A stretch of DNA of 64,000 nt, from NCBI GenBank assembly GCA_000004985.1, contig GG738849.1. One strand, given 5' to 3'. Made by a program: the position numbers and the translations under genes. Numbering within the stretch: the stretch's first letter is position 1; every line of letters begins with the position of its first letter. The stretch is from Naegleria gruberi. Its lineage: Eukaryota. Positions 5,655 through 31,919 of the stretch are shown one piece after another. Below the pieces are notes generated by a model. That model was not told the origin of the DNA. It made no database searches and was given only the letters and a program-made list of their open reading frames with translations.

Positions 5655-8600
5655 ATGAAGTTGGAAGCACTGCTGAGTGTGGATTTACCATCAGACAAAC
5701 AAATCAGCAAACTCAGATCGGTTAGTTTCCATCCAACACAAAACAAAATTGCTATTGGATTTAGAAAGGAAATTTATGGTATGTAATTTGTGGATGTGAG
5801 GATGAAGAATGTGATTTCAATATTAATTGTCTATGTTGTTGTTGAAAAAAGAGTATGATCTTGGAACAGGGTCTAGGACTGCTCACTTTAAAACAGAGAG
5901 TGAGGTAACACATATTGCTCACTCTAATACTCATCCGGCAATTGTTTCTGCATTACAAAATGGATGTTTTAGTGTTCTTGATCTAAATACAAATACACTG
6001 ACTGCTTTCCATATTCCTGTCCGAAGAGAGGAAGCAAGAAGTGCATCATTCTTTGCCCTGTCCAATAAGAGACCAATGATTTTCTATGCAAGAACTCCTT
6101 CAAAATTATCACGTGAAAGAACCAATATTGTTTTTGGTATTGAAATGTTTTCCGATTCAAAACATAGAGTTGAGTATAGTCATAAGAAACAAATCACAGC
6201 AATTACTACACATCCTTGTAAATCTTTGATGGCATCAGCAAGTCAAGATGGTGTTATTAAAGTATGGGAGACTGAACAACATAATTTATTATTTCAAATT
6301 GATGGTAAGTTTTTATTATTGATGATTTTAGGATTGAATTTGTGATAATATAGAATTTGAAGCAAACAAAAAGGAAAGAGAAGCTGTTACTAGCTTGTGT
6401 TTTTATAATAGTGGAAGAATAGTGATTATGACATTTTAATTTCTGGAACAAGAGAAGGATCAATCAAAGTATGGTATTTACCAAGTACAACATCACCTCA
6501 ACAACCACGTGTTGTTGGTTATGTCACTACTGATGAATGGATCACATCAATTTTAATCCATCCAAATTTACCATGTCTTTTCTATTTGAACGCTAAAGGA
6601 TGTTTAAATTCTATTGACATTGGATCAATTATTTATTCAACAACTGGTGGACCAAAGATGAAGACATTATTGACAGAATTTGAAATGTTAGATCCATACT
6701 ATGTTGCTTTGCACAGAACAAAGGATACCAAAAAGAGATTAATTCCTATCATTAATGCTACAATCCATCCAAAGACTGGTAATATTGCATTTTACGTAAG
6801 TTTCTTTTTTAAACATTTGTTGTTTATTATTATATTCATAACAAATCAAATAGGGCAAAAATTTCCAAATTTCTGAACTAAATGCAAGAGTCATCAAAGG
6901 AACTATTGTTGCTGATAGATTCCCAATATTTTCTGCTTTTGATTTTGGAAATCCTGGAAGCATGTTACCACATCCTTCTGTTATTAATTCCAATCTCGAA
7001 ATGTTATTGTCCTCTAAAAAACAACAAACCTCTAACGAACTTGTTGCCAATGTGGACTCTTTGGATTATCAAATACCCTTCAATACTATTCCTTATGTTG
7101 ACAGTAGATCTAGACCTCCTCACAATACAGTTTTGTCTTTTGATTTGAAGAAGGAAGTTGCTCAAGTACTTGTTGGATCTTTGAGAGCTACACAAGATTT
7201 GTATCCCTTTTATAGATGCACCAAATCTAATTTCAGTCCTAATAGAAAATCAGTATTGATGTTCTATGAAAAATTACTCAACTCTTCAAATACTTATGAG
7301 AGTGATAACTCTAAATTTTTCTTCTCCAAAGTAGATGATATTTACTCGGGAGGCAAGGATAAAGTCGTATTGCAACTTCAAAAGGGTATTGATGGAGGAT
7401 TTTTGGGAGATTCTAACAAGGATTATGTTGTCCTTTCAGAAGGAGGTGATGTTCTCAAGGTTTACACAAACAATGAGCTTCAAAGTGATATCAAATTGAA
7501 CCGTAAAGTCAAGTCATTATCAACTTGTCCATTCGATAGATCAATTATTTACTGTACAGCCAATAACGAATTAAGTTTAGCCACCTCTATTGAAGACAAG
7601 ACAGAAAACAGACTCCAAATTGACAATAACAAAATTTTCCACCTCAGAGGAAACGAAACACTTATTGATATTCAATGGCAAAGAGAACCATTGTGTAATG
7701 AGGCCTGTTTAGTTGGTGTAATTACTTCTAGAAGAGTTATCATCCTTTCCAAAAATATGGATATGCTTTCATCTGTTGAAGCTTCCAGCCAAATTTCATT
7801 CCAATTCCAATCTATTCTCTGGGTAGGAACAGTACTCCTCTACAATTCTAAAAACTTTATTCACTGTCTTCATCCATATGGATCTACCAATAATTCTAGT
7901 GCCTACATTGGTACATTGGATCATTCTGAATCAGTGTTGTGCGCCACTTTATGTGACAGAGTTTACTTTGTCTCACACAAAGATAGAACCCCAACAATTT
8001 CCTATCGTTATTTGAACATTGTAGAACCTTTGCTTTTGGGTATTTTATCAATTCCAAAAGAAAAGCTTTCTGATGAACAAAGAGGCGATCTTTTAAGAAA
8101 GGTTACCGAAAGATTTGATTGTAGAAATGTTTCTGAAAAAACCTTGTACTTTTTGGAGAGACAAGGTTTCCCTCACTTAGCATCCGAGCTTGTTACAAAC
8201 AGTTTGTTTAACTTTTCATGGGAGTTGAGATTAAGATTGGCTAAGAGTTCAATGAACTTTTCTTATGCCTTGAAGGTTTTGGTTTCTCAATATGAAGAAG
8301 AGTCTCATGATCGTACTGGATTTATTTCTAAGAATTCAAAGTTCTACACACATTTTGTAGATCTTGCCAAATCTTCTTTAGAATATGGTCAATTTTCTGT
8401 TGCTCTCAAATGTTTTGATATGATCAATGATGTTTGGGGATTATTTAATTTATTCACAACTACAAATAATGCCAATGGCTTGAAGCTATTAGCACTTAGA
8501 TGTAGAGATTCACCTGATTTTTATTCAATTTATACAGCTTGTGCTCTATTGATTGGACCTGAAGTGATTGAAGATTTCATAAGAAGTTATGATATCACCA

Positions 8601-10054
8601 TTAATTCTATGGATGTAAATGTTGATGATTGGCCATTTAAGGTTACAGATGTTAAGGAATACGAAGTTAGTACTGAAATTAAGGGAAGAATGCTCGTTGG
8701 TGAAAGAAAGGTTACTGATCAACTCAACTCTGGTAGAGATGCAAGTCTTACTACTCCACCATCTCTGGGAGGTATGCCATCTTCTGAAGAGGAAATTTCC
8801 AAGATGGACATGACTGATTTCCTTAAATGGTTGGGTTATGGAACCATGTCAGTTGGAAAGGAAAATCTTGAAGAGGTTGGTTTCAAGGATGACTTTGGTG
8901 GTCAAGGAGGATCAGCATCAATTGAAGAAGATGAGCCAGCAGGTAAATCAACAAGTAAATTGCCACCACTACCACACAAGTTGCAAGCTCCACCTTCCTT
9001 GGATGTACCAAACGGTTCAACTACATCAGCTACAGAAGCATCAGAGAAGGATGATGATGAAACTAGTGAAATGACATCCACAAAAGATCAAAAATCAAAG
9101 AGAAAGGGTGACAGTGATTCTGATGATAGCGATTCTGATGATGAGGAAGAAGATAAAAGGACCAAGGCATTCCAAGGTCTTAAGATTAAGGAAGAAGTTA
9201 TCTACAAGGATGCTTCAGCCACCGATATTAGAGATTCCATGTCAGGACTTGGTGGATTGGGAGGAGCCAGTAGTAGTCGTAATAGAAGAAGAAGAGGTGT
9301 CACTACAATCAACAACAAGCAAGAGTCAGCCAATGATTCTACCCAAGAATCACCAACACCTTCTACACCATCCAGTCAAAGCAATGAAGACGACGGACCT
9401 AAGCTTGTTAATATTAATCCAACTCAATGCTTGAAGGATGGTATGACAGCTATGGAAAAAGGTGACTTTAAGGAAGCAAGAAATCAAATTGTTTCTGCTA
9501 TTTCAGCTCTAGTTAAGGATAGTACTCAAATCCTTAAGAAGAATAGTATTATTCTTTGTGTAAATTACAAATTATTGATTCACTTGTTAGCCAGAATAAG
9601 AACAGTAGAAAATCAAGCCGATGCCAAAGAACTCGCCAGATTGGCAACATTTATTTGTCAAATCAATGTAATTAATAAGCATAAGATTGTCTGTTACAAT
9701 ATGGGTATCAAGAGAAATATGAATGCTGCCAACTATGGTATCACTAGCTCGATTATCAAGCAATTTATTCCACTCACCGAAAGTATTCCAAAAGTGAAGG
9801 AAGAACTTCAAAAGAGATATCAAGAATGTTCTGAAAAGGGATTCTCTAATGCTGATGCACAATTGGCACAACTTTTCTCAGAGGCAACAGAAGAAAAACC
9901 ATTGAAATTCTGTTGGAAGACTTATCAAGTTATTTCATCACGACACTTGAAGTGTTCATATTGCTCAAGTTTAGGATGTATTTCTGATACTTGTGCAGAA
10001 GATAGTGTTTGTTCATATTGTACATATGGTAATATGGAGCTTGTAGAAGAATAA
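5655..10054 (+). CDS. Large WD40 beta-propeller + alpha-solenoid protein (about 1350 aa) with a Cys-rich C-terminal tail: vesicle-coat/tether-like (protocoatomer) architecture. Exons approximately 5655..5778, 5852..6304, 6354..6795 (frame problem near 6420) and 6854..10054.
   Basis: WD repeats (SVSFHPTQNKIAIG, ASASQDGVIKVWE, GTREGSIKVW), a long helical region, an acidic Ser/Asp-rich insertion (SDSDDSDSDDEEED, about 8880..9400) and a C-terminal CSYCSSLGCISDTCAEDSVCSYCTYG motif. Family assignment (HOPS/CORVET, TSET/TTRAY, SEA/GATOR-like) not resolved. Confidence 0.6.
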
Positions 10055-10072
10055 TTTATAAATTATAACGTT

Positions 10073-11911
10073 TTATACATTGCTATCTCTTATCAAACTC
10101 ATTTTCTTCAATAGTTCACACTCAAACCAATACCTTGTTCTAAGGTAGAACATGTATCGGATATCTAACCATTTCCAATCACAATATCTGTGAATGATTA
10201 CTACATTGTCAGAATATCTTTGATCATTTTTTGCATACTTTTTAAATTGAGAGTATGACAAATTAACAAATGGTGAAAGATTGTGCTCAAGATCCATGGC
10301 ATGTTGGAACATTTCATCCACTCGATCAATTTCCATAGTTTCTTCCAATCTTTCTCTAATTTCATCCTCAGAGGTTGCAGGTGGTCTGTTGATAGTTTTG
10401 GATTCGAAAAAATTGGCTATCCATCCAATAGTTCTAATTGACATTTCCACCTCAAAATCTCTTTTTGGTATAATTAATGCATTTCTCTGACTGTTCAATA
10501 AATATTCAGCACGAGCTTGGTCGCTCACAATAATTTCATTAAATGCCACTCTTACTCTTGCAAAGCAATATCCAATAATTATGCAAATGAAAACCAATGC
10601 AAAAATAGTTAGCTCAGAATAAAATCCATTATTATATTCAATGGATGGAATAAATGCTTTCAAAACTGCTAGCATGGATGTTATGGACAAAATAAATAAA
10701 GAACTGAATATCATTATACAGGCAACAATATTCATAGCCGTCTTGTACCACGAGACAAAAAGTATGCTCACCGACAATACTATCAAGACAAGGAAAAAGT
10801 CCACAAACATTGCAATGACAATCATAATAGGGTGAGTAAACATGCTATGAACAAAGCATGAAACAAAACATGAAAAGTATAAAATCATATCCAATCTCGA
10901 GTTACTCTTTGCACACATGTTTCCCAGATCAAATCTCCACTCGTAACAATGTATCAGATAAACATATGAAACAATCATGAATGGAAAGACCAATAATAAG
11001 CTTGGAATTAATATAAATACATTTAGAGATTGGATTGAATTGAAAAATCCAAGACTCACTGGAATAACCATTGCAGGTAATAATTCCACTAAATTAAATA
11101 ATAACCAAAAAGCCACAACTCTCTTCCTTTCATTTCTTTGTTTGAATATAATCATCTGAGGATGATCTTGAATATTTTCATAAGAATCCACTTCTCTGGT
11201 TCCTTTCAAAAATTGATATGATTTCCAAGATTTGTAAAAGCAAAAACCAGTCAAAATTAACAGTGTCAGAGTAACAAATGTTGCAAATAGGAATGGTACT
11301 AAAAGTGTTCCCACAAAATCCGAGTCATCATCCCACAAATAAGAAATCTTTAAATTTCCAATCACTGACAGGTATTTGAAATATTTTACATTTGATCGAT
11401 GCCATGGCAGATGAAAATCCGTGAACAATGTAATCCACTGAGCCAGTAATATAAAATGGCACACCAATGACACCATTCCCTTATTTGAATGTTTGAAAAT
11501 CTTGCCAAATAATCGTTCTTTCAAAGAAGACACGTTTCGTTTCGAGTGTGTTGATGGAGTTGGCATCTTTTCCAAATCATCATCATTTCCAAAATACAAA
11601 TACAATTCATAAAAGAAGTAATACAATCCCTTTTCTCTATCCTTCAAAGATAATTGTGGATATAATTTCTCATAACAAACATCATGATCAGACAATACAC
11701 TTGCCGATGATACAATATTAGGAATTATTCTCGTGGTTGTTGTTGTTGTTGTAGATATTTGTTGTTGTTGCTGCTGATGATTATCTCCTCCTCCATTGGA
11801 TACGATCAAACGAGTAGCCATCTGTTGTTGCTGTTGTGTGTTACTATTGCTATTCATCATCTGGGTCGCAGATAAATATTGTTGCTCCTCCTGTGGATGA
11901 TTCGTAGACAT
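10073..11911 (-). CDS. Polytopic membrane protein (at least 8 predicted TM helices) with a Gln/Thr-rich N-terminus; family unknown.
   Basis: 612-aa ORF; multiple hydrophobic 20-25 aa segments; poly-Q and poly-T N-terminal tract. Confidence 0.5.
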   Translation of the reverse strand: MSTNHPQEEQQYLSATQMMNSNSNTQQQQQMATRLIVSNGGGDNHQQQQQQISTTTTTTTRIIPNIVSSASVLSDHDVCYEKLYPQLSLKDREKGLYYFFYELYLYFGNDDDLEKMPTPSTHSKRNVSSLKERLFGKIFKHSNKGMVSLVCHFILLAQWITLFTDFHLPWHRSNVKYFKYLSVIGNLKISYLWDDDSDFVGTLLVPFLFATFVTLTLLILTGFCFYKSWKSYQFLKGTREVDSYENIQDHPQMIIFKQRNERKRVVAFWLLFNLVELLPAMVIPVSLGFFNSIQSLNVFILIPSLLLVFPFMIVSYVYLIHCYEWRFDLGNMCAKSNSRLDMILYFSCFVSCFVHSMFTHPIMIVIAMFVDFFLVLIVLSVSILFVSWYKTAMNIVACIMIFSSLFILSITSMLAVLKAFIPSIEYNNGFYSELTIFALVFICIIIGYCFARVRVAFNEIIVSDQARAEYLLNSQRNALIIPKRDFEVEMSIRTIGWIANFFESKTINRPPATSEDEIRERLEETMEIDRVDEMFQHAMDLEHNLSPFVNLSYSQFKKYAKNDQRYSDNVVIIHRYCDWKWLDIRYMFYLRTRYWFECELLKKMSLIRDSNV

Positions 11912-12075
11912 TTTTTCTTGGAGAGTTTTTGGAAAGGCGCCACATTACAATTCAATAAACAAATAAATTGGTTGTGAATATTGGAATATTGATAAATGTA
12001 GGCAAGAAAGACTGTAATGAAGGGAACATTTGAGGTAATAATCAGCAATAGAGTCATGACGATGAGAGAGTGAAT

Positions 12076-13878
12076 TTATTGTTGATCGACTTGGTCATAG
12101 AGAAGAGAGTGAATGAGGGAAGGAATGGAAGTTTTTGATTCTTGAGCTTGGAGGGAAAGGAGATTGGCCAGCTCTGGATCTTTTTGGAGGTGAGTGAACA
12201 TGCTGGTGGCTCTAATGTTTTCCAATTGAATGTTGTAATAGATGTGGATGTATTCAGTGTTGAAAGAGGAGAGGATGAGGACCAGTTCATTATTGTGTCG
12301 GGGAGTGAGCGAAAATTTTCCACAATAACAATTGGCTAGTTGGTTTTTGAAATTGTAGGTCACGATATTCTTCTCGTGGTCGAGAATGTAAATGATACCA
12401 TCCCATGATGTTATCAGTAATTGAGAATTTTGAGAGGATGTAATGAAATTGTGCGCACTGAGGGAGAGAATTTCATGTTCAATATTGACAAAATAGTCGT
12501 AATATTGATGATAGTTTTGCTTAGTGATGGTATAGTTGGGTGCGTGAACGATGGTGCCTTTCGTGGAGAGGATCTCTTCTGTAATGTTGAATTGTTTGAA
12601 TGGATCGATTACTATGACTTCTCCGCTCAATCCTGAGAGGGCTACACATTGATTTTCTCCAAATTTCACATTACCAACCACTGTGAGAGGTTCATTCTTG
12701 AAATTAATATGTTTTGGTTCAATAATTATTACAGTATCTATTGATGAAATAATTCCAAAACCTCCTGATACAAATCCTAATATTATCGAATCATTGTGAA
12801 TGGAAATACTATTAACTTGATTATCCTTCGTGTAAATTTCCTTCAAAAAAACAAAATCGACTCCATTTTGCTTTTCCATAAATTTGTAAACAAAGAGGTT
12901 TCTATTATTTCCTCCAAAAATGATTTCCTCAACTCCATCCTTATCAATATCAAAACTAATTGCACAATTAATATTACATGGAATCCTCGAAGTTAAAAAT
13001 GGAAGAATTGCCTCACTTCTATTTCTTGAATTAATGTGAACTGTTGGTTGATGGAATTGTGCAGTCGGTGGAGATGGACTTCTTGAAGGTGGCACAAAAT
13101 TGCCCTGTTCAGTTGGTGTTATAGGTGTAGTATCAAGTGATGTCTTACTCGAATATGAAGAAGGTATATGCAATGGTGTTGGTATATCTTGTCCAGTTCC
13201 CAATGATGACAACATATCATGAAAAGGATTCGATTGACTATCAGCAGTCATGGAACTATCATAACTATTCACACTGATATTATCATTTTCCATAGTGTAG
13301 GGATGATTCGTATTAAAGGTAGTTTGACTTTCCACACTTTGTGCATCATCAAAACAATTACTAAGAGTTGTCGATGGACGTTCTGTGAATTTGAAAAAGT
13401 GTACTTCTCCCTCAGCACAAATAACAATTAAAATTGGCATTGCCTCCCAACATCCACACGATGAAGCAGGTAATTTTCCATAAATTATTGCTGAAATCTA
13501 AATTCATTCCGAAATTAATCATATTCAACAATTAATCCAAAATAAATAAATTATTCATAATCATAATAAATTAAAGTCAATATTCATAATAATAATAATT
13601 ATAAATAATAAATTATATTACCAATATATATCCAAATCAATTCAAATAAAACCCACCGTTCCTAAATTAACACAAACATATTTCGGATACTTGTATTGAA
13701 TAAATTGATAAATACACAATGTTCCGTTAATATTTCCAATCACCAATTCTCTCAAACCATCTCCATCAACGTCTTCCAAGAGAATGGCATTCTGAGCAAG
13801 GCTTGTTTTTTGATCAAAGTACAAATCATGCGAATCGACAAAGGAAACTTGTCTCAGCGTCGGATGTTGTTGAATCAT
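12076..13878 (-). CDS. ITFG2: ITFG2-like FG-GAP/beta-propeller protein (KICSTOR subunit ortholog). Exons 13657..13878 and 12076..13497.
   Basis: N-terminus ...NAILLEDVDGDGLRELVIGNINGTLCIY matches the ITFG2 motif [26 protein letters not shown]. ...ITSWDGIIYILDHEKNIVTYNF matches [20 protein letters not shown]. C-terminal ...SLLYDQ tail. Donor gtgggt, acceptor AG, phase 0. Confidence 0.6.
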
Positions 13879-24024: not shown

Positions 24025-24991
24025 ATGAAAAGAGAAGGAGAAACAGCAATGGCCGATGATGGAGAGTTAGATTATTCTGAACTTGTTGATGAGATTGGAA
24101 TTTCCTCCGATTATGATGAAAATTATAAATCATTGAAGGATTTTTGGGATGTTGCAGAGAAGGATTTTTATCAAAAATCAACAGATTATTGGAAGGAAAA
24201 GGTTACGAATGATATGAATGGAATGTTGGGAGGTTTTACTCATGTTCACGATAGGGATATTAAAGAGAGTTCGCTTTTATTGAGTAAAGTTTTGGAGGAT
24301 GTTACACCAGGTAGAGAAGGAGAAAAGTCTTTCATGTATTGTTTAGAATGCGGAAGGTATGTTTTATTTGTATTTGATTAGAAAAATAATTGTTAATGAT
24401 GATGACGATATTATTATTACTTTGGATGTAACAAAATAATATTGTTAATTAATATTTAATAATGTTAAAATAGTGGAAATGGACGTGTTACTAAAAATTT
24501 ACTGTCTAAACATTTCGATTATATTGATTGTGAGGATGTTAATGAGGAATTTTTGATTAAAGCCAAGGAAGAATGCAACAAGATCAAGGAGACTTATGCT
24601 TGTGCATTGCATGAATTGTCAAGGGTCATTCCAGAAGAATGTAAAGGAAAATATCATGTAGGTTTATTCATTTTGAAAATTTATTGACATTGTACAGTGT
24701 ATTTGGGTTCAATGGTGTGCCTGTTTCTTGACTGATAGAGATTTTGTCAAATTTTTGGAATATTGTTATGAATTACTAGTTGATGGAGGAGTTTTGTGCT
24801 TCAAGGAGAATATTTCAGGAAAGGGTTTTGTTGTTGATTCAGATGATGGCTCAATAACTCGTAGTAATAATCACTATTTGTTTTTATTTTCACAAGTTCA
24901 ATCCAAATTTGAAGTTATTGAAAATACCAAACAGAAAAATTGGGAAAAGGGTTTATTTGCTCTCAGAATGTACTGTTTAAAGAAGAAGTAA
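24025..24991 (+). CDS. NTMT1: Alpha N-terminal protein methyltransferase 1 (NTMT1/METTL11A-like). Exons 24025..24356, 24474..24657 and 24698..24991.
   Basis: ...DGMLGGFTHVHDRDIKESSLLLSKV matches the NTMT1 motif DGMLGGYGHISSIDINSSRKFL. SAM-binding ...YCLECG/SGNGRVTK. ...YHCIWVQW matches DVIWIQW. Donors at AG/gtatgt and CAT/gtaggt, AG acceptors, frame preserved. Confidence 0.75.
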
Positions 24992-24992
24992 A

Positions 24993-26437
24993 CTAAACCA
25001 AATGGACCAATAAAACATCACCATGCTCAAATTGTAATTGAGGTGTTGTGTATGGGTCAATTGGTGTCAATACTCCATTTCTCTTCAACTTGATCTGCGT
25101 TATGGATTTTAACATGTTATTATTCCACAACTTTTTCTCATTGACCATCTTTTCACTCAATTGTTCACACAAGAATGAGAATGTGCAACATTTGTGAATT
25201 GAAAACTTGGAAGTCATGAGTGAATTTTCATAATGTGAATAATCTGCCACTGTTAAAATCTTCGTCTCATCAAAGAAAATGACAAACATGGCAGCTTGAG
25301 CAGTTCCATTTGGTGAAAATTGAGGAGTCACTACTGGATATTGTTGATGTGAATTGGATGATGGTAAGGAGAAGAGTTGAGAAAGGAATGGAGCTGAGGA
25401 TGGAGACGTGTTATAGAATTGAGCAGCAGCTGCACTTGTTGATAAATTGGATGTCATGATATTTGGAGTTGTGGTGTTATTATTACTAGTAATATTACTA
25501 GTAATATTGGAATTGGAATTATTGGATTGATCTAGAATACAAAATGGCTGAACCATTTCATTGTTACTATTCGAAGCAGATGCTAACTGTACATTTGGAA
25601 TGCCCATCAATGGATGGTGATCTTGTTGTTGATTGTGTCCATTACTGGTTGTGGCTTTCATTCTCTTCATGGCCAATTCATTAATATCCAAAGAATTTAA
25701 CATTTTGGTGGTTGTGTCTTGTCCTAAAACCATATCCACAAATGATTTGGAAGGAGAGGATGCTGTAGAACTCACTGTTGCTGTATTTAAATTATTCGTA
25801 TTGTTATTATTAAATTGATTGTAAAGTATCATGTTGGAATATTGAGGAGTTGAAGAATTGTGGATATTATTATTATTTGGAATGGTATTGGCCATTTCAT
25901 TCAGTAATGATTGAAGAGAGTAAGCAGTTGTTGGTTGGTGTGGAATTTGTGGAAGAAGGGTTTCGACTTGATTATTCGATTTCACATAATTATTATCCGT
26001 GGGAATGCTTTCCAATAAATTCAAGAATTCATCATCTTGATTTGAAAGTGCATTCCAGGGAGTCAACAAATCATTTTGTGAATTCTGTAATTGATCAACT
26101 GGATTATTTTGGTCAACTGTGGTAGTTGTGTTTGTGGTCGTCACCAACGAAGTCAATGAACGTTTTCTCTTCTTTGATGATGAAACCTCTTGATCAGAAG
26201 AGGAACAGTTAGATGATCTTTTCAGAGAATTATTAGATGAAGTTTCCTCTTCATCAATTCGAAGGGTTTCGTCCTCCTCTTTCGAAGAAGATGCAGATGA
26301 TGAAGAAGCAAGGGATAATTTCCTTGAATTTCGTTTTCTCTTTGGTTTTACCTCTGAATTTTCCGTTTGATTATTTTCATTATCACCACCACATCCATTT
26401 GAATGGTGACTATTACCATTTTGATTCTTATTAAATC
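24993..26437 (-). CDS. Asn/Thr/Gln/Ser-rich low-complexity protein with a conserved-looking C-terminal domain. The ORF continues upstream of the track start to an acceptor near 26437. Possible further 5' exons at 26823..26888 and about 27016..27120 (Cys-rich).
   Basis: In-frame extension ...SNGCGGDNENNQTENSEVKPKRKRNS...SSSKKRKRSLTSLVTTTNTT... precedes the track Met. Candidate upstream exons end in gtaagt donors and encode CVCCKRYNLHY and GVCCNSCYNKQ motifs, but no start codon was found. Confidence 0.4.
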
Positions 26438-26902
26438 GATACTATATATACATGTGTTGGTAGATGATAATGATTATCCAAGTAGTGGCCACCACATACA
26501 CATCATGGTAATCAACATGTGTGTTGTTGATGATAAAGACATTGAGGGTTCAACACAGCATGTTGTGTGTCGAAACGCAAATGCAGCATGGAAGATAGCA
26601 CACATTGTAGGCCATGATTGAGAATGATTTTTCGCGCGCAAATGGAAAGAAGGACAATTTACAATTCCGAATCCAATATTGTTATTAATGGTAATGAGGC
26701 AATCGTTCAGCACACACATTCACAATATAACAACAACAGCAGCAGGAGGCAAAATGTTGTTGATGATAATGTTTCATCAATATATTCATTAAAATCTATC
26801 GAGAGAGAATATTCTTACTTACCTGCTTGTTATAACAAGAGTTGCAACAGACGCCAATTGGCACCTCAAAGTTGAAGGCTGCTACATACTGCATTCATAC
26901 AC

Positions 26903-26950
26903 ATGTGATGATGATGATGATGAATATTAATGATGAAGATGATGATGAAG
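26903..26950. repeat. Simple-sequence (GAT/GAA)n tract.
   Basis: gatgatgatgatgatgaatattaatgatgaagatgatgatgaagaagat, read directly from the sequence. Confidence 0.7.
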
Positions 26951-29224
26951 AAGATTGTGTGAAAATGGAAAGAAGAAGGGTTTAGGATAATTCAAAGGTA
27001 GGTGAAAATACTTACAGCATCTCTGTTGCTTGCATTGATATTATACTTTTTAGAGTAGTGGAGGTTGTATCGCTTACAACATACACAAAGATTGCTTCCA
27101 TCCTCGTTGGGAATATTCTTGTGTTTGGTCTTGTCGCCAATGATTGCCATAGAGTCCATTAGTTTGTTTAGAATAAAGTTATTCTATGTTGAAGAGAGAG
27201 GGTTGGTGGTAGATGAACAAAGATTAATTGTGTGTCTTTGTGTAAAGTTGTTGTATATTGATCTGGAATGATCGCAAAGAGTAACGACTTGGTTGACCAG
27301 CAACAAATTAGACGAAATGCTGGTTGTGTCAATAAATATTTGCGTGATGCAAAGATTCTCGGTAGAAGTAGGTTAAATAGAATTTGATTGGTTTTTTTTT
27401 GAGCAAATTGTTTCGAATAGTTTGGGGAAATAAACCTGTTGCGAAACACAAAATTGGTATTTGGCACTAGTGGAGCGAGGAGTGTGGTTTTGGTTGGGTA
27501 TAACCTTTCTTACAAACCAAACACTTATTCTTTTTTTTTGATGTTGGCTTGGAAGAAATCAGACGAAAGCCTTGTGAAATATGTTTCGAATAGAGGGATG
27601 CATAGACTCCTTGTGTGGCCTTTCAAAAATTCCCATTCAGGTATGTCAATACTTTTGGAAGATAGCAGAAGAAGTCACCACCATGAATGGTGAACAATAC
27701 ACAAACTAAATTTTGCACAACAATTATTCGAAACAAGCAAAGAAACATAACCTTGTGATTTCTACCACACCTTCCAGCCAACATTAACTGTGCGTGGTGA
27801 AAAGATTTCTTCATCTTCTACCTCCACTTTTAGAATCCAGCCCTCCGACTATTGACATAAATTTTTATCGGAAAACCCACCGATTGTTTTTGGGAATGAT
27901 TTTTCAGGGGATTTTCAAATGATTCCGAAAACAGGTTTTTTGTTTGAGTTGAACAAAGTTTTCTTCAGCAGCAGAATTTGAGTTTACAAATGAATATGAG
28001 ATATGGAATTTTGCAATTTTACAAGTTTATGAGGTGTAGTATGGATGGTGGAAAGTGTGTTGTGAAAATTGCTGTATTTACAGTTGTAAATGGGTAGAGT
28101 TTCGAATTGAAAATTGGTTTCGTTTTGGTGTTTGTAATAATGGGTCTTTCTGTGAGGAGTTGCAACAGGAGAATAGAATTATGCGGTGCCAATCACGATT
28201 TGTCTCTCGATTATTTAGAATGTAGTTGCAATTCATTCACAGTTTCGAATTGAAAGCATGCAACAGATAACACAATTTGTAGACAATACCATTTAAGAAA
28301 CAAATGATTATTCCTCTTGAAACCTTCTCTGAAATTTTCAACTAACGCGTAAAAACATTTCCCCAAAGTTTGTGAACGTCATATGCCAAGGTCACATCAC
28401 AATTTTCCTTCACTACCATTTTGGTATTTTTGCAACTATCAATTTTCTTTGGATGATCGAATCCCTGCCATACACAGCAAATTGGAGAAAATTCATTTTC
28501 GCTGGAATAACTTGTGCAAATTTAGTATCAGATAGAGTTAGTTAACCTTGAGTCAATTAGGGCACTTTCTAATAAAATTAGAGGAAACCTATATTATAGT
28601 AGATGAGGAGAATAAAACATTTACTTTTGGGTGAATTGATATTAAAAACTATCAACTGGCTTGTTAAGGGGTTTATCCACTACTCATCACTCGAGAGAGA
28701 TTTTGAATTTAGTGTACACGAACCATATGTTTGTTATGAACAAGGAAATGATTTTCATTTATCACAGCACTGTAGTTTTACTGTAGTGGAGAGAGTTGTT
28801 GGGTGAGGTTGGTATTAGAGTTGTTGGGTTTTTGGTTGATAGGATTGGTTGACCAATCTGTATTGTGTTGGAAATTGTGAAAAAAAATGATGAGAATGAA
28901 GGGGAAGAAATGAATCGAGTTTGAAGAAGGACATGTTGGCTTGCTAATCGGAAGAGTTTAGGTAAGATGTCTTGATGAGAATTTATTAGAAAGTTCAACC
29001 TAATGATGATTACCATTTTTATTGGATATTTCCATCATTAATTTTCATAATGAAAATTTAAATGATTCGATCATCGGATTTTGGAACATGTACTCGGTTC
29101 TTGTGTATTAAAAAGTACAGCTCAAATATTTCTCATAGCTCTAGATTCGTATTGAATTTTTGAATCTCACAAATATGAGGAAGGACAATTATTCGAAAGA
29201 AAACTATTCAGAAATAAGAAACTT

Positions 29225-30552
29225 TCAAACTTGTTGCTCATCTTCCACAACAATTTCAACACATGTGTATGATTCATCCACATTTGACTTATCCTTCGCC
29301 TTGAAATCTCTCATTTCTGAAATCATTTCATTAATGGATCGATTGACTGGAGCTCCAGTTTCTAATTCTTGACTTATTGGACCACTTTCGACACTAACAG
29401 CAGCTCTTGGAGATTCCTTTTTCTGAGACGAAACACTCATCCTTCTAAACATAGTTTGAACTTGATAAAGTGGCGAATAAATTGCTAATAGAAAGCAAAC
29501 TAAACAAACATATCCAATATTATAAAACCCATGAAAAATCACCGTGCAGTAGGGCCACAACAATGAAAATGGAATGAACACAAACCCACAAAACTGAATA
29601 ATCATTGAAATTGTAATTCCATATTGTAAAAGAGTTGCATTTCGAAGTGCCTTCTTTTTCATTTGTAAACTCGATTCCAAACTCTTATCAGTTGCATTCT
29701 GATTGTTGAGAGTTTTTCTGAGGGAGTCTACTCGATCTCTGGCGATTTTGAGATTTTTCCTTAATAATCGTCCGGAATAGTTTAGGATAATGGAAAAGAT
29801 GGTTATGGAAATGAGGAAAAGGAGTGAGGCGAAGACCATGAGGCCTATTAAGAGATTGGATAGAAGGGATTCGTCCACTAGTTTGAAAGCTGAGGCGAAA
29901 CCGAATAAGAGACATAAACTAGCTGAAAGAAATACAAAGAGGGAAATGGCTATAAGAAATATAATGACCGTGATTCTAATTCTTTTGAAAGTCTTTTTTG
30001 TAACATTTCCTGTTGATTCGGAAGTTTTAAAACTGTTTCGAATAAATTGTTTATTGTAAAATTACAATTCATTGACTGAAAAACTTACAAAACCATTGAA
30101 ATATGCGCCATTATCAGAATAGACAGTAAAACTCCCAAATTATTACAAACTCTACCAATTCCCTTCATTATCGAAGAAGAAACCAACACGGCATTCGAAT
30201 CACTTATCAAATACAATAATTCATTTGCCTCCCTCACCCACATGTTCAAATTTACAATCGCCAATAAGACAATCAATAATCCGAATAGTATATGTTGATT
30301 CCTCGCCAAATATTTATATTGAATTGCATAATTTATCACAACAATTAAGAAGAGGAAAGCAAACACCAATACGAACGGTGCACTCATTCCGAGGGTGATT
30401 TGTCTGAAGAGTGAGAATTGTCCAATATTACTAGCAGCACCTGCTGATGAAGTTACATTACTGTTGGTTGTGTTGCTAAGTAAAGATGTCGTTATGTGTT
30501 GCAGGAGAAGCAAGTTTCGCGTTGTTGATAAGAGATGAAGTTGTTGTTCCAT
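29225..30552 (-). CDS. Seven-transmembrane (GPCR-like topology) membrane protein. Exons 30089..30552 and 29225..30032, with a 56-nt intron at 30033..30088.
   Basis: The two track ORFs (29225..29878 and 30085..30810) join through a gtaagt...aacag intron in phase 2 to give one protein of about 420 aa with seven hydrophobic helices and a cytoplasmic C-tail. Start taken as MEQQLHLL (ATG 30552). The 5' part of the 30085..30810 track ORF is an artefact that overlaps the tRNA. Confidence 0.55.
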
Positions 30553-30715
30553 TGTTTTACAGATAAAAGCGAAATGAGTTATCTCAACCAAAAAGCAGAA
30601 CTTTCTATCATGGGTGAGTTTCATATGAATGTTGTTAGCATCGTATCTCTCCCGAAATGATATTATACGAATGAGTAGAATGGGTGGCAAGATTTCGAAT
30701 CTGTGGCTTAACAGC

Positions 30716-30723
30716 CAAAAGAT
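30716..30723 (-). terminator. Pol III terminator T-run immediately 3' of tRNA-Thr.
   Basis: Minus-strand ATCTTTTGG directly after the tRNA 3' end. Confidence 0.55.
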
Positions 30724-30797
30724 TGCCTCCCTTGGGAATCGAACCCAAGACCTCTGTCTTACTAGGACAGCGCTACTGCCAACTGAGCTAGGAAGGC
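30724..30797 (-). tRNA. tRNA-Thr, anticodon AGT (AGU); no encoded CCA.
   Basis: Minus-strand GCCTTCCTAGCTCAGTTGGCAGTAGCGCTGTCCTAGTAAGACAGAGGTCTTGGGTTCGATTCCCAAGGGAGGCA. 7-bp acceptor stem, anticodon stem CTGTC/GACAG with loop CTAGTAA, T-arm GGTTCGATTCC, and A/B box-like elements. Confidence 0.85.
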
Positions 30798-30890
30798 TTA
30801 CGGTAAGCATATAAAACGCCTTAATATCAATCTAATAAGAGCTATTGTTCTAATAATAGTCTGTGGTTTACAGATAACACAAAAGAAAAA

Positions 30891-31919
30891 ATGTCTTCAT
30901 TTGTTCCATCAACCAAGTTGGCAAGAGAAAGAGCTTTGGATAAATCAACATTGCCTCCGAAGAAAATTAAGATTTATTATGATGAGGATGCATTCGTTCC
31001 ATTAGGAAAACAAAAGAAAGGATCATGGTTAGTTGAACATAAGGAAGTCGGGCAAACCTTTCCATCCTATGAAAGAGGTTCATTCAATAGGATCAAGTAG
31101 GTAGAATATTGATAATCTCAATTTATTAACTTTAATCTATTTTGAATCAATTATTATGAAATATTTCTATTGATTCATTTAAATCATTTAATTTCAATAT
31201 TCAATTATTCCTGCAGAGGATCAAAACAAAATGTAATTTATATTTGCTGTTTGGAGGAATTTCCAGAAGATCAACCTACCAGATATCCATCCATGACCAT
31301 TCTAGTTGAATTTCTTAAGAAATTCTATTGGGGAGTTGAAGTTAAGCTATTCAAAGATCCAACAGGTTACAAAACATTTCCAACCCGACTTAATGACGGA
31401 GTTGAACAATACAAAGCCCCTGACATTCTCAAATATCTCAAAAAGGTCATTCCCAAGGATGCTTACTGTATCATTGCAGTAACAATGGTAGATCTGTATC
31501 CAAGGGATGAGTGGAATTTTGTCTTTGGTTTTGCCTCTTTAGAGGAGAGAGTAGGAGTTTTTTCATTTGCAAGATATCATCCGGATTTCTATGGTGAGGA
31601 CCATTCACAATCTCCCTCAGACATTGAGAGAAATATATTGAGGAGGAGTTGCAAAGTGGCTTCTCATGAGATTGGACACATGTTTGGCTTTAAGCACTGC
31701 ATCTATTACAAGTGCGCAATGAATGGCTCAAATCACATGGAAGAGAGTGATGAACGTCCATTAGAGTTGTGTCCAGTAGAATTGAGGAAATTGCAACACT
31801 GTATTGGTTTTGATGAGAAGGAAAGATATCAGCAATTGTTAACTTTCTTCAAAAACCATCCTCAAATGTTCTCTTCAGAAATTCAATGGTTCACGGAGCG
31901 ATTGGAGTACATTAACTAA
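30891..31919 (+). CDS. AMZ: Archaemetzincin (zinc metallopeptidase, AMZ family). Exons 30891..31096 and 31217..31919.
   Basis: HEIGHMFGFKHC ...C...C motif (HEXXHXXGX3C plus CxxC-like Cys residues: CIYYKCAMNGSNHMEESDERPLELCPVELRKL). Donor gtaggt, acceptor ctgcag, frame preserved. Confidence 0.75.

Follow-up and report, generated by a model that had tools for sequence, protein, structure and literature searches.

Introduction

In yeast, whose genome is compact, the regulatory genes HO, FLO11, and IME1 have unusually long promoters of 2-3 kb that are rich in motifs. Repeated short sites are also known from boundary elements of fission yeast, which contain clusters of tRNA B-boxes; the B-box consensus is GGTTCGAATCC / GGTTCGANTCC, with conserved G53 and C61. 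To our knowledge, almost nothing is known about cis-regulation in Heterolobosea. A recent work describes gene-by-gene promoters with enriched binding motifs in this group (bioRxiv 10.64898/2026.07.29.740908).

Here we analyze a stretch of 64,000 nucleotides of Naegleria gruberi DNA (hereafter the window), in which an earlier note had singled out about 2.7 kb as poor in open reading frames. We conclude that these 2.7 kb consist of two ordinary things lying side by side, namely the 5' end of a gene encoding a Cys-rich protein and a non-coding spacer that is probably regulatory DNA (Table 1). Nothing that we found in the region suggests a new kind of element. The spacer of 2 kb and its motif cluster nonetheless provide a small and concrete test case for the study of promoter architecture in Heterolobosea.

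Table 1. Features in and around the ORF-poor stretch. Positions are those of the window; distances of motif copies are to the ATG of the Cys-rich gene.
Feature	Position	Strand	Details
Exon 3, Cys-rich gene	24993..26441	-	stop codon included
Intron 2, Cys-rich gene	26442..26822	-	381 nt, GTAAGT...ATATAG, phase 0
Exon 2, Cys-rich gene	26823..26888	-	encodes YVAAFNFEVPIGVCCNSCYNKQ, second CxxC pair
Intron 1, Cys-rich gene	26889..27015	-	127 nt, GTAAGT...TGCAG, phase 0; position conserved in N. lovaniensis
Exon 1, Cys-rich gene	27016..27159	-	encodes MDSMAIIGDKTKHKNIPNEDGSNLCVCCKRYNLHYSKKYNINASNRDA; ATG at 27159; GTAAGT donor at 27015; alignment with the N. lovaniensis orthologue
Spacer, single-copy non-coding	27160..29224		2,065 bp; bounded by the 7TM stop codon (29225-29227) and by the ATG of the Cys-rich gene
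GTTTCGAAT copy 1 (TGTTTCGAATAG)	27410..27418	+	251 bp upstream
Imperfect inverted repeat	27538..27787		arms of ~55-65 nt (27538-27593, 27722-27787), ~130 nt between them
GTTTCGAAT copy 2 (TGTTTCGAATAG)	27583..27591	+	424 bp upstream; inner end of the left arm of the inverted repeat
GTTTCGAAT copy 3, inverted	27726..27734	-	567 bp upstream; inner end of the right arm of the inverted repeat
GTTTCGAAT copy 4 (AGTTTCGAATTGAAA)	28099..28107	+	940 bp upstream
GTTTCGAAT copy 5 (AGTTTCGAATTGAAA)	28242..28250	+	1,083 bp upstream
Two-exon gene, 423-aa multi-pass membrane protein (7TM)	29225..30552	-	exons 30552..30089 and 30032..29225

Results

Extent and composition of the ORF-poor stretch

Counted from stop to stop, open frames with 120 or more codons take up 76% of the window. 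The longest stretch without any such frame is the one spanning positions 26442-29227 (2,786 bp), followed by one of 1,189 bp, which bears out the claim that the region is ORF-poor. Inside it, the longest open frame has 113 codons and the longest start-to-stop ORF encodes 99 aa (27168-27467, minus strand). The region had also been described as not extremely A/T-rich, and this holds as well: the GC content of the spacer is 0.342, practically the mean of the window (0.341), and that of 12 other non-ORF gaps of the window is 0.24-0.34. The plus strand of the spacer is asymmetric (0.21 of G, 0.14 of C). Stop trinucleotides are depleted relative to shuffled sequences (density of 0.054 vs. 0.072), and open frames of at least 38 codons are about twice as numerous (30 vs. 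16.7 +/- 3.2). In terms of GC content, stop density, and number of medium-length frames, the spacer looks like coding DNA rather than like a spacer. The same would be expected of coding DNA that has decayed.

A three-exon gene encoding a Cys-rich protein

Judging from the alignments given below, the part between 26442 and 27159 proves to be the 5' end (exons 1 and 2 with both introns) of a predicted and apparently unannotated three-exon gene on the minus strand. Once spliced, the three exons make a CDS of 1,659 nt (552 aa) without internal stops; the two introns have GTAAGT donors and AG acceptors. An in-frame TAG is found 8 codons upstream of the ATG (27186-27184). The N. lovaniensis protein C9374_011413 aligns without gaps over both junctions (A48/Y49 and Q70/Y71), and the two intron positions are the same in its gene. 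The similarity of the two introns to those of N. lovaniensis is at the level of shuffled sequences in local alignments. An independent metagenome contig is ~99% identical over exons and introns. Hence, the two exon-like segments with GTAAGT donors that the earlier note had pointed out are real exons, located on the minus strand and with the exact limits of Table 1. That they form the Cys-rich 5' end of the low-complexity gene next to them is supported by the collinearity of the junctions with the orthologue, and the start of the gene, which had been missing, could be found. Exon 3 encodes basic NLS-like clusters, a long and fast-evolving low-complexity region rich in Asn, Ser, and Thr, and a C-terminal putative ubiquitin-like beta-grasp / PB1 domain.

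Together, exons 1 and 2 encode a C-x2-C-x34-C-x2-C module that has 74-85% identity with its counterparts in N. lovaniensis and Willaertia magna (84% and 74%, respectively, over the N-terminal 73 residues). Its four Cys (C25, C28, C63, and C66) do not vary among six domain copies from four proteins. This fits zinc binding, an activity that had been proposed as possible and for which the module is a candidate. The module matches no Pfam family and, by sequence or by fold search, no solved structure, and a scan of JGI metagenomes with conserved peptide patterns retrieved no further relatives. It is common to C9374_011413 and to the W. magna proteins ABK040_009836 and ABK040_012892, which, like the N. 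gruberi product, also have a putative C-terminal beta-grasp-like domain. The low-complexity region in the middle cannot be aligned with these relatives and differs greatly in length (proteins of 552 aa in N. gruberi vs. 644 and 257 aa). All of them are uncharacterised and thus give no indication of function.

The described proteins closest to this architecture are the treble-clef and zinc-ribbon Cys4 fingers (GATA-type and ZAD-type, CxxC...CxxC). Like them, the module has two CxxC pairs and invariant Cys, and the second pair opens a predicted helix. Unlike in these fingers, the 34-residue spacing and the sequence fit no Pfam model and no solved structure, and the module is assigned to no named family. 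As it is strongly conserved in two genera and outside the described families, in proteins whose remainder is unalignable, we regard the module as a plausible candidate for a lineage-specific nucleic-acid- or protein-binding domain. That the gene encodes a regulator is only suggested by this architecture.

The neighbouring membrane-protein gene

On its other side, the spacer is bordered by a gene on the same strand that encodes the 7TM protein and has an intron of 56 nt (GTAAGT...AACAG). We found no homologue of this protein anywhere, and it belongs to no Pfam family. The 3' untranslated tail of the gene must extend into the spacer, where TTTATT (AATAAA on the minus strand) occurs at 29018 and 28982. 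The collection of 5.8 billion proteins that we searched has no N. gruberi entry for the 423-aa membrane protein nor for the 552-aa Cys-rich protein. Further N. gruberi proteins encoded in the window are nevertheless present in the same collection. Two ORFs of the window are exact N. gruberi proteins, which identifies the organism. Since both genes lack entries, ~5.6 kb of the reference seem to be gene-free although they are not.

A cluster of short motifs and an inverted repeat

The earlier note had listed a short motif that recurs in the spacer, and this clustering is real. We counted 6 copies of GTTTCGAAT in the 64 kb for 0.61 expected, a number reached in 0 of 100 shuffles. Five of them lie within 841 bp of the spacer, 251-1,083 bp upstream of the ATG, and the sixth is at 30035, within the intron of the membrane-protein gene. 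The four copies listed previously, all on the plus strand, were recovered (two of them are exact copies of AGTTTCGAATTGAAA), but an inverted fifth copy had been overlooked (Table 1). As a post hoc control, we simulated the region with a first-order Markov model: any 9-mer reached 5 copies in only 3 of 1,000 simulations. The other 2-kb stretches of the window having a 9-mer in at least 5 copies correspond only to low-complexity coding DNA made of codon repeats. The half-site GTTTCG is present at 3.4 per kb in the spacer vs. 0.40 per kb elsewhere in the window.

We found no motif catalogue for Naegleria in the literature. The TTCGAA core is unlikely to be sensitive to CpG methylation because 5mC is sparse in N. 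gruberi (0.28%) and not CpG-specific (PMC12344493). The imperfect inverted repeat folds with z-scores of -3.6 (plus strand) and -2.2 (minus strand); it is present only once in the window and lacks a flanking duplication. The spacings between motif copies (173, 516, and 143 bp) hinted at a degenerate tandem array with a period of ~172 bp. This possibility was rejected, as an offset-match scan was aperiodic and Tandem Repeats Finder reported only trivial repeats in the spacer.

Comparison with the N. lovaniensis locus

The spacer upstream of the N. lovaniensis orthologue has 1,241 bp and is the longest of the 13 in the 22.6-kb locus, where the median is 207 bp. Its GC content is 0.39 (0.37 on average in the locus). 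It has a motif cluster of its own, made of a different 9-mer, with three of the four copies of TGATGACCA found in the locus, all within 115 bp, for 0.41 copies expected per locus. Local alignment of the two spacers revealed no similarity (score of 15 vs. 14.5 +/- 1.3 in shuffles). GTTTCGAAT is absent from the N. lovaniensis upstream region, and the two GTTTCG half-sites present there are not significant. Hence, conservation lends no support to a function, although saturation of neutral DNA is to be expected at the divergence between these two species. A tblastx search of the locus retrieved no counterpart of the spacer or of the 7TM gene. In N. lovaniensis, 1.24 kb separate the orthologue from a gene encoding an M54 peptidase, and the two species differ by rearrangements of the flanking genes.

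Searches for other elements in the spacer

We searched the spacer for the signature of an RNA. There was no match to Rfam 15 in 26400-29300 at the gathering score or at E<=5, the best candidates having 14.6-19.9 bits for thresholds of 39-86; the sole match in the window to reach its threshold is a tRNA-Thr (30724-30797). Sliding z-scores revealed no folding signal (means of 0.0 and -0.7 for the plus and minus strands, respectively), and the three segments with z < -3 have weak absolute energies, from -9.5 to -12 kcal/mol. The DNA might have been kept because 27200-28900 produces an independent lineage-specific lncRNA, or an upstream or antisense transcript. Such a transcript would be consistent with a region that is long, single-copy, and, unlike most spacers of the window, not AT-rich, as well as with the asymmetry between its strands and with the shared orientation of 4 of the 5 motif copies. 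We consider it unlikely, given the lack of a match to Rfam even at the permissive threshold, of excess folding stability, of conservation with N. lovaniensis, and of strong splice donors.

It is less likely still that the spacer is decayed DNA, either the remnant of one or several dead genes or an eroded lineage-specific insertion that arrived with the orphan 7TM gene beside the tRNA-Thr. The coding-like GC content, the depletion of stops, and the excess of medium-length frames are compatible with decay. So are the absence of a counterpart in the N. lovaniensis locus for the whole block from 27160 to ~30850 (spacer, 7TM gene, and tRNA-Thr) and the absence of homologues of the 7TM protein. However, the spacer has the composition of the host, and the poverty in C of the plus strand can by itself account for the small number of minus-strand stops. 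When the 30 open frames of at least 38 codons were joined into a query of 1,712 aa, no protein homologue was found at E<=1 among the 5.8 billion proteins, and there were no remnants of transposases, reverse transcriptases, or integrases in these frames at the same threshold. Blastn found no copies of the spacer, only chance matches, in the remaining 62 kb of the window and in two loci retrieved for comparison, among them the 22.6-kb one of N. lovaniensis. No terminal inverted repeats and no long terminal or flanking direct repeats bound the block, where only short repeat pairs of low identity occur. The earlier note's degraded mobile element in 27200-29200 is thus not supported, for want of such repeats, of a copy in the window, and of a transposase-like ORF. 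An insertion targeted to the tRNA was rejected too, as the spacer contains no fragment of the tRNA-Thr that could be a tRNA-derived att-like site.

The spacer has no GTAAGT donor on either strand and a single GTATGT, whereas all three introns checked nearby start with GTAAGT. Together with the absence of homologues and of long read-through frames, this argues against the heavily spliced gene that had been put forward for 27200-29200. We also discarded a hidden selenoprotein or an alternative code, since reading through any one stop codon yields no frame of more than 124 codons. Very improbable, in our opinion, is an unrecognised orphan protein-coding gene that is short or has weak splice sites. 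The 7TM neighbour proves that genes without homologues occur here and may be absent from the public protein set, and a codon-Markov coding score, although without a sustained signal, has two weak and short peaks of 5-7 bits, at 28320-28500 (minus strand) and 28620-28800 (plus strand). Yet these peaks do not exceed the noise found elsewhere, in a crude score that is also near zero for the confirmed short exons and for much of the membrane-protein gene; moreover, the longest ORF is the one of 99 aa mentioned above, which has no homologue, and the donors used nearby are missing.

The least probable explanation is that the motif copies are degenerate tRNA B-box-like sites that recruit the RNA polymerase III factor TFIIIC without transcription and would thereby form a chromatin boundary between the two genes: the centre of the motif, TTCGAAT, is the heptamer at the centre of the consensus GGTTCGAATCC, its five copies cluster within 840 bp of non-coding DNA as in B-box or extra-TFIIIC clusters, and a real tRNA gene is 2.5 kb away, but the flanking G and CC are missing in 5 of 5 copies (T at the conserved G53 and, as GTTTCGAAT is followed by A or T, one of these at C61), neither an A-box partner nor a tRNA-like fold could be detected, ARAGORN and Rfam identified no tRNA-like or SINE-like unit, and there is no similarity to the tRNA-Thr.

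Discussion

We infer that the spacer is most likely ordinary regulatory DNA, i.e., non-coding DNA between two genes of the same strand. Its far end, approximately 29224-28960, would probably be the 3' untranslated tail of the membrane-protein gene upstream. The other ~1.8 kb would comprise the promoter, the 5' untranslated region, and an upstream control region of the Cys-rich gene, although the exact limits of tail, promoter, and 5' UTR are guesses. We favour a 3' tail and a long promoter because, at the orthologue too, no other spacer of the locus is as long as the one upstream of the gene. The simplest view of the five copies of GTTTCGAAT is that they would be a putative cluster of sites to which one sequence-specific factor binds. 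As in homotypic clusters of binding sites, a short motif is over-represented in non-coding DNA near the start of a gene; conservation of the sites at the orthologous promoter, another mark of such clusters, is not observed in N. lovaniensis.

A more ambitious version of a regulatory spacer can be envisaged, which we regard as doubtful, below a transcript or decayed DNA in probability and above an orphan gene. The five GTTTCGAAT sites and the 250-bp imperfect palindrome that holds two of them would then make a dedicated control element, an enhancer-like array or a boundary, switching the Vahlkampfiid-specific Cys4 nuclear protein on or off at a transition of the Naegleria life cycle. The spacer would have been kept for that role, possibly via a non-coding transcript. 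If true, such an element would be the first handle on heterolobosean cis-regulatory logic.

The reading that we favour, a 3' tail followed by a long promoter, is best compared with HO, FLO11, and IME1 of yeast. Unlike these genes, the one described here is only presumed to be a regulator. Like them, it lies downstream of a spacer several times longer than the local norm in a genome that is otherwise dense, and it has a short motif repeated within ~1.1 kb of its start codon. A long upstream spacer is found at the N. lovaniensis orthologue as well.

The ORF-poor region and the gene start that it contains

The window has a GC content of 34%, is dense in genes whose introns carry GTAAGT, and contains two long ORFs that match N. 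gruberi proteins exactly (NAEGRDRAFT_46101 and NAEGRDRAFT_78254), which identifies it as nuclear DNA of this species. Of its length, 76% falls within stop-to-stop open frames of 120 codons or more. The largest uncovered stretch, 26442-29227 (2,786 bp), is more than twice the size of the next one (1,189 bp), and its longest ORF has 99 aa. The spacer within it has a GC content of 0.342, equal to the window mean, and values of 0.24-0.34 were measured in other non-ORF gaps. These results bear out the earlier note, which described the region as ORF-poor and of a composition that is not extreme A/T. Though real, the region is for the most part unremarkable: the start of a gene occupies one third of it, and a long, single-copy, non-coding upstream spacer the other two thirds (see table). 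CpG is depleted across the window (observed/expected 0.45; 0.62 in the spacer). Since 5mC in N. gruberi is very sparse and lacks CpG preference in published methylomes (PMC12344493), this depletion is not obviously due to methylation.

Features of the ORF-poor region and its surroundings
Feature	Position	Strand	Remarks
Exon 1, Cys-rich gene	27159..27016	minus	joined reading frame, GTAAGT donor
Exon 2, Cys-rich gene	26888..26823	minus	joined reading frame, GTAAGT donor
Exon 3, Cys-rich gene	26441..24993	minus	joined reading frame
Non-coding spacer	27160-29224		2,065 bp; from 7TM gene stop to Cys-rich gene ATG, both genes on the minus strand
7TM gene	30552..29225	minus	two exons; 423-aa multi-pass membrane protein, about seven hydrophobic segments
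tRNA-Thr	30724-30797	minus	anticodon AGT; Rfam

The two exon-like segments with GTAAGT donors of the earlier note, proposed there to be the Cys-rich 5' part of a gene, are both present on the minus strand. Joined to exon 3 they give an uninterrupted reading frame of 1,659 nt with two canonical introns (127 nt and 381 nt) and an in-frame TAG eight codons upstream of the ATG (27159). The proposal is further confirmed by the closest named relative, N. lovaniensis C9374_011413, whose protein aligns without gaps over both junctions (59 of 70 N-terminal positions identical) and whose gene has both introns at the same positions. An independent metagenome contig (ENA ERZ929261, k127_38009) is about 99% identical to the exons and introns. 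Aligned with window 24916-27097, it shows about 99% identity at aligned positions; the roughly 80 indel columns fall chiefly in intron 2 and in the low-complexity exon. This indicates that its sample contains a very close N. gruberi-like strain. The protein has no N. gruberi entry in a collection of 5.8 billion proteins. Since this collection holds other N. gruberi proteins of the window, the gene is apparently unannotated. It is a new member of an uncharacterised Vahlkampfiid protein family.

Two further observations concern this gene. A gap of one base lies between its stop codon (TAG, 24993-24995) and the stop codon (TAA, 24989-24991) of the N-terminal methyltransferase gene on the plus strand; the convergent transcripts must overlap at their 3' ends. 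Intron 2 contains a sub-threshold Rfam match to a C/D-box snoRNA model (26718-26782, minus strand; 19.9 bits, E=4, with the gathering score at 75), near a UGAUGA-like box at about 26785 and a CUGA box at about 26712. This match is probably due to chance, since conservation with N. lovaniensis does not extend to the intron sequence.

A cluster of short motifs in the spacer

The recurrence of a short motif in the spacer was also confirmed. The 9-mer GTTTCGAAT has six copies in the window, against 0.61 expected, and five of them lie between 27410 and 28250, at 251, 424, 567, 940, and 1,083 bp upstream of the ATG of the Cys-rich gene, including an inverted copy at 27726 that had been overlooked. 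When the region was simulated 1,000 times with a first-order Markov model, only three runs produced any 9-mer at five copies. Elsewhere in the window, the 2-kb stretches in which a 9-mer occurs five or more times owe this to codon repeats in low-complexity coding DNA. The cluster is statistically sound. Beyond 15-22 nt the flanks of the copies are dissimilar, so the copies do not derive from a long repeat. Only the copies at 27583 and 27726 depart from this, as they occupy the inner ends of the two arms of an imperfect inverted repeat of 250 bp (fold z-scores: plus strand -3.6, minus strand -2.2). In the spacer, the half-site GTTTCG shows an eight-fold enrichment.

The centre of the motif, TTCGAAT, matches the core of the tRNA B-box, but the conserved flanking G and C are absent in all copies, and we therefore do not class the copies as B-boxes. 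A methylation-sensitive CpG in TTCGAA is unlikely given the sparse, not CpG-specific 5mC of N. gruberi (PMC12344493). The sixth copy of the motif, which reads ATTCGAAAC on the minus strand, lies in the 56-nt intron of the 7TM gene (30033-30088, minus strand) and directly adjoins its AG acceptor.

Interpretation of the spacer

We regard it as fairly probable that the spacer combines the 3' tail of the 7TM gene with the Cys-rich gene's promoter and upstream control region. The tail would occupy the far end, where minus-strand AATAAA signals lie 207 and 243 nt past the 7TM gene stop, the rest would be the control region, and the motif copies would be putative binding sites. In N. lovaniensis, the spacer upstream of the orthologue (1,241 bp) is the longest of the neighbourhood (median 207 bp, 13 spacers), its GC content is at or above the local mean, and three of the four copies of another 9-mer, TGATGACCA, in the 22.6-kb locus (0.41 expected) fall within a 115-bp stretch of this spacer (9167-9281 of the locus), 720-834 bp upstream of the ATG. 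TGATGACCA shows no enrichment in the N. gruberi window. A long, motif-clustered upstream region thus travels with the gene, although its sequence turns over. The two upstream spacers do not align, nor does either intron of the gene. Coding DNA is only 68-82% identical between the species; saturation is thus to be expected in neutral sequence, and the missing alignments are uninformative on function. Gene-specific promoters and enriched binding motifs have been reported in Heterolobosea (bioRxiv 10.64898/2026.07.29.740908).

Some features of the spacer fit this reading less well. Its GC content is coding-like, its stop-trinucleotide density is low (0.054 against 0.072 in shuffles), and its medium-length open frames are about twice as many as in shuffles. 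These signals are accounted for in part by the scarcity of C on the plus strand (C 0.14, G 0.21), which removes minus-strand stops, and they would look the same in decayed coding DNA.

A lineage-specific origin of the block from 27160 to about 30850 is possible. The M54 (archaemetzincin-like) peptidase, Cys-rich, and methyltransferase genes are neighbours in N. lovaniensis too (window 24025-31919, locus 7548-13825), but there the block, i.e. spacer, 7TM gene, and tRNA-Thr, has no counterpart, and both flanking genes are rearranged, being opposite in orientation relative to the Cys-rich gene. For the 7TM protein, a search of 5.8 billion proteins gave no homologue at E<=0.001, and it has neither a Pfam family nor an N. 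gruberi entry in the collection; its gene looks like an orphan and is apparently unannotated. The tRNA gene lies in the 338-bp gap between the ATG of the 7TM gene (30552) and that of the divergently oriented peptidase gene (30891). A 241-aa ORF at 30085-30810 reads through it, and its start was rejected as spurious.

A less probable alternative is an independent non-coding transcript from the spacer. In the search for known or structured RNA, tRNA-Thr was the sole Rfam find in the whole window, nothing in 26400-29300 came near threshold even at E<=5, and the mean folding z-scores of the spacer are 0.0 (plus strand) and -0.7 (minus strand). Two earlier suggestions were not supported. A protein-coding or heavily spliced gene is disfavoured by the absence from both spacer strands of GTAAGT (23 in the window, and used by all three introns near the spacer), by the lack of protein homologues at E<=1 for its 30 open frames of at least 38 codons joined as one query, and by the lack of frames above 124 codons when any one stop is read through. 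A degraded mobile element is disfavoured, as we found no bounding repeats, periodicity, or tRNA-derived fragment, and no second copy in the window or the loci used for comparison.

The product of the Cys-rich gene and comparison with known systems

A query made of the first 86 residues retrieved solely its own family among 1.84 billion representative proteins: N. lovaniensis (84% identity), two Willaertia magna proteins (one at 74%), and one short protein in which the Cys module is present twice. The six module copies share the pattern C-x2-C-x34-C-x2-C, with four invariant cysteines and invariant Tyr, Asn, Phe, and Gly. The AlphaFold2 model of the module is of fair quality; pLDDT is 88-90 over residues 41-70. 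The part of the product between its two ends carries basic KRKR clusters together with a long tract rich in Asn, Ser, and Thr, which is unalignable between species. This architecture would be compatible with a nuclear regulator.

The module shares with treble-clef CxxC...CxxC fingers no more than the pattern. It matched no Pfam family, solved structure (by sequence), or solved fold, and fits none of the named families with which it was compared. Some regulatory genes in compact genomes have unusually long promoters, and by analogy the spacer upstream of the Cys-rich gene would behave alike.
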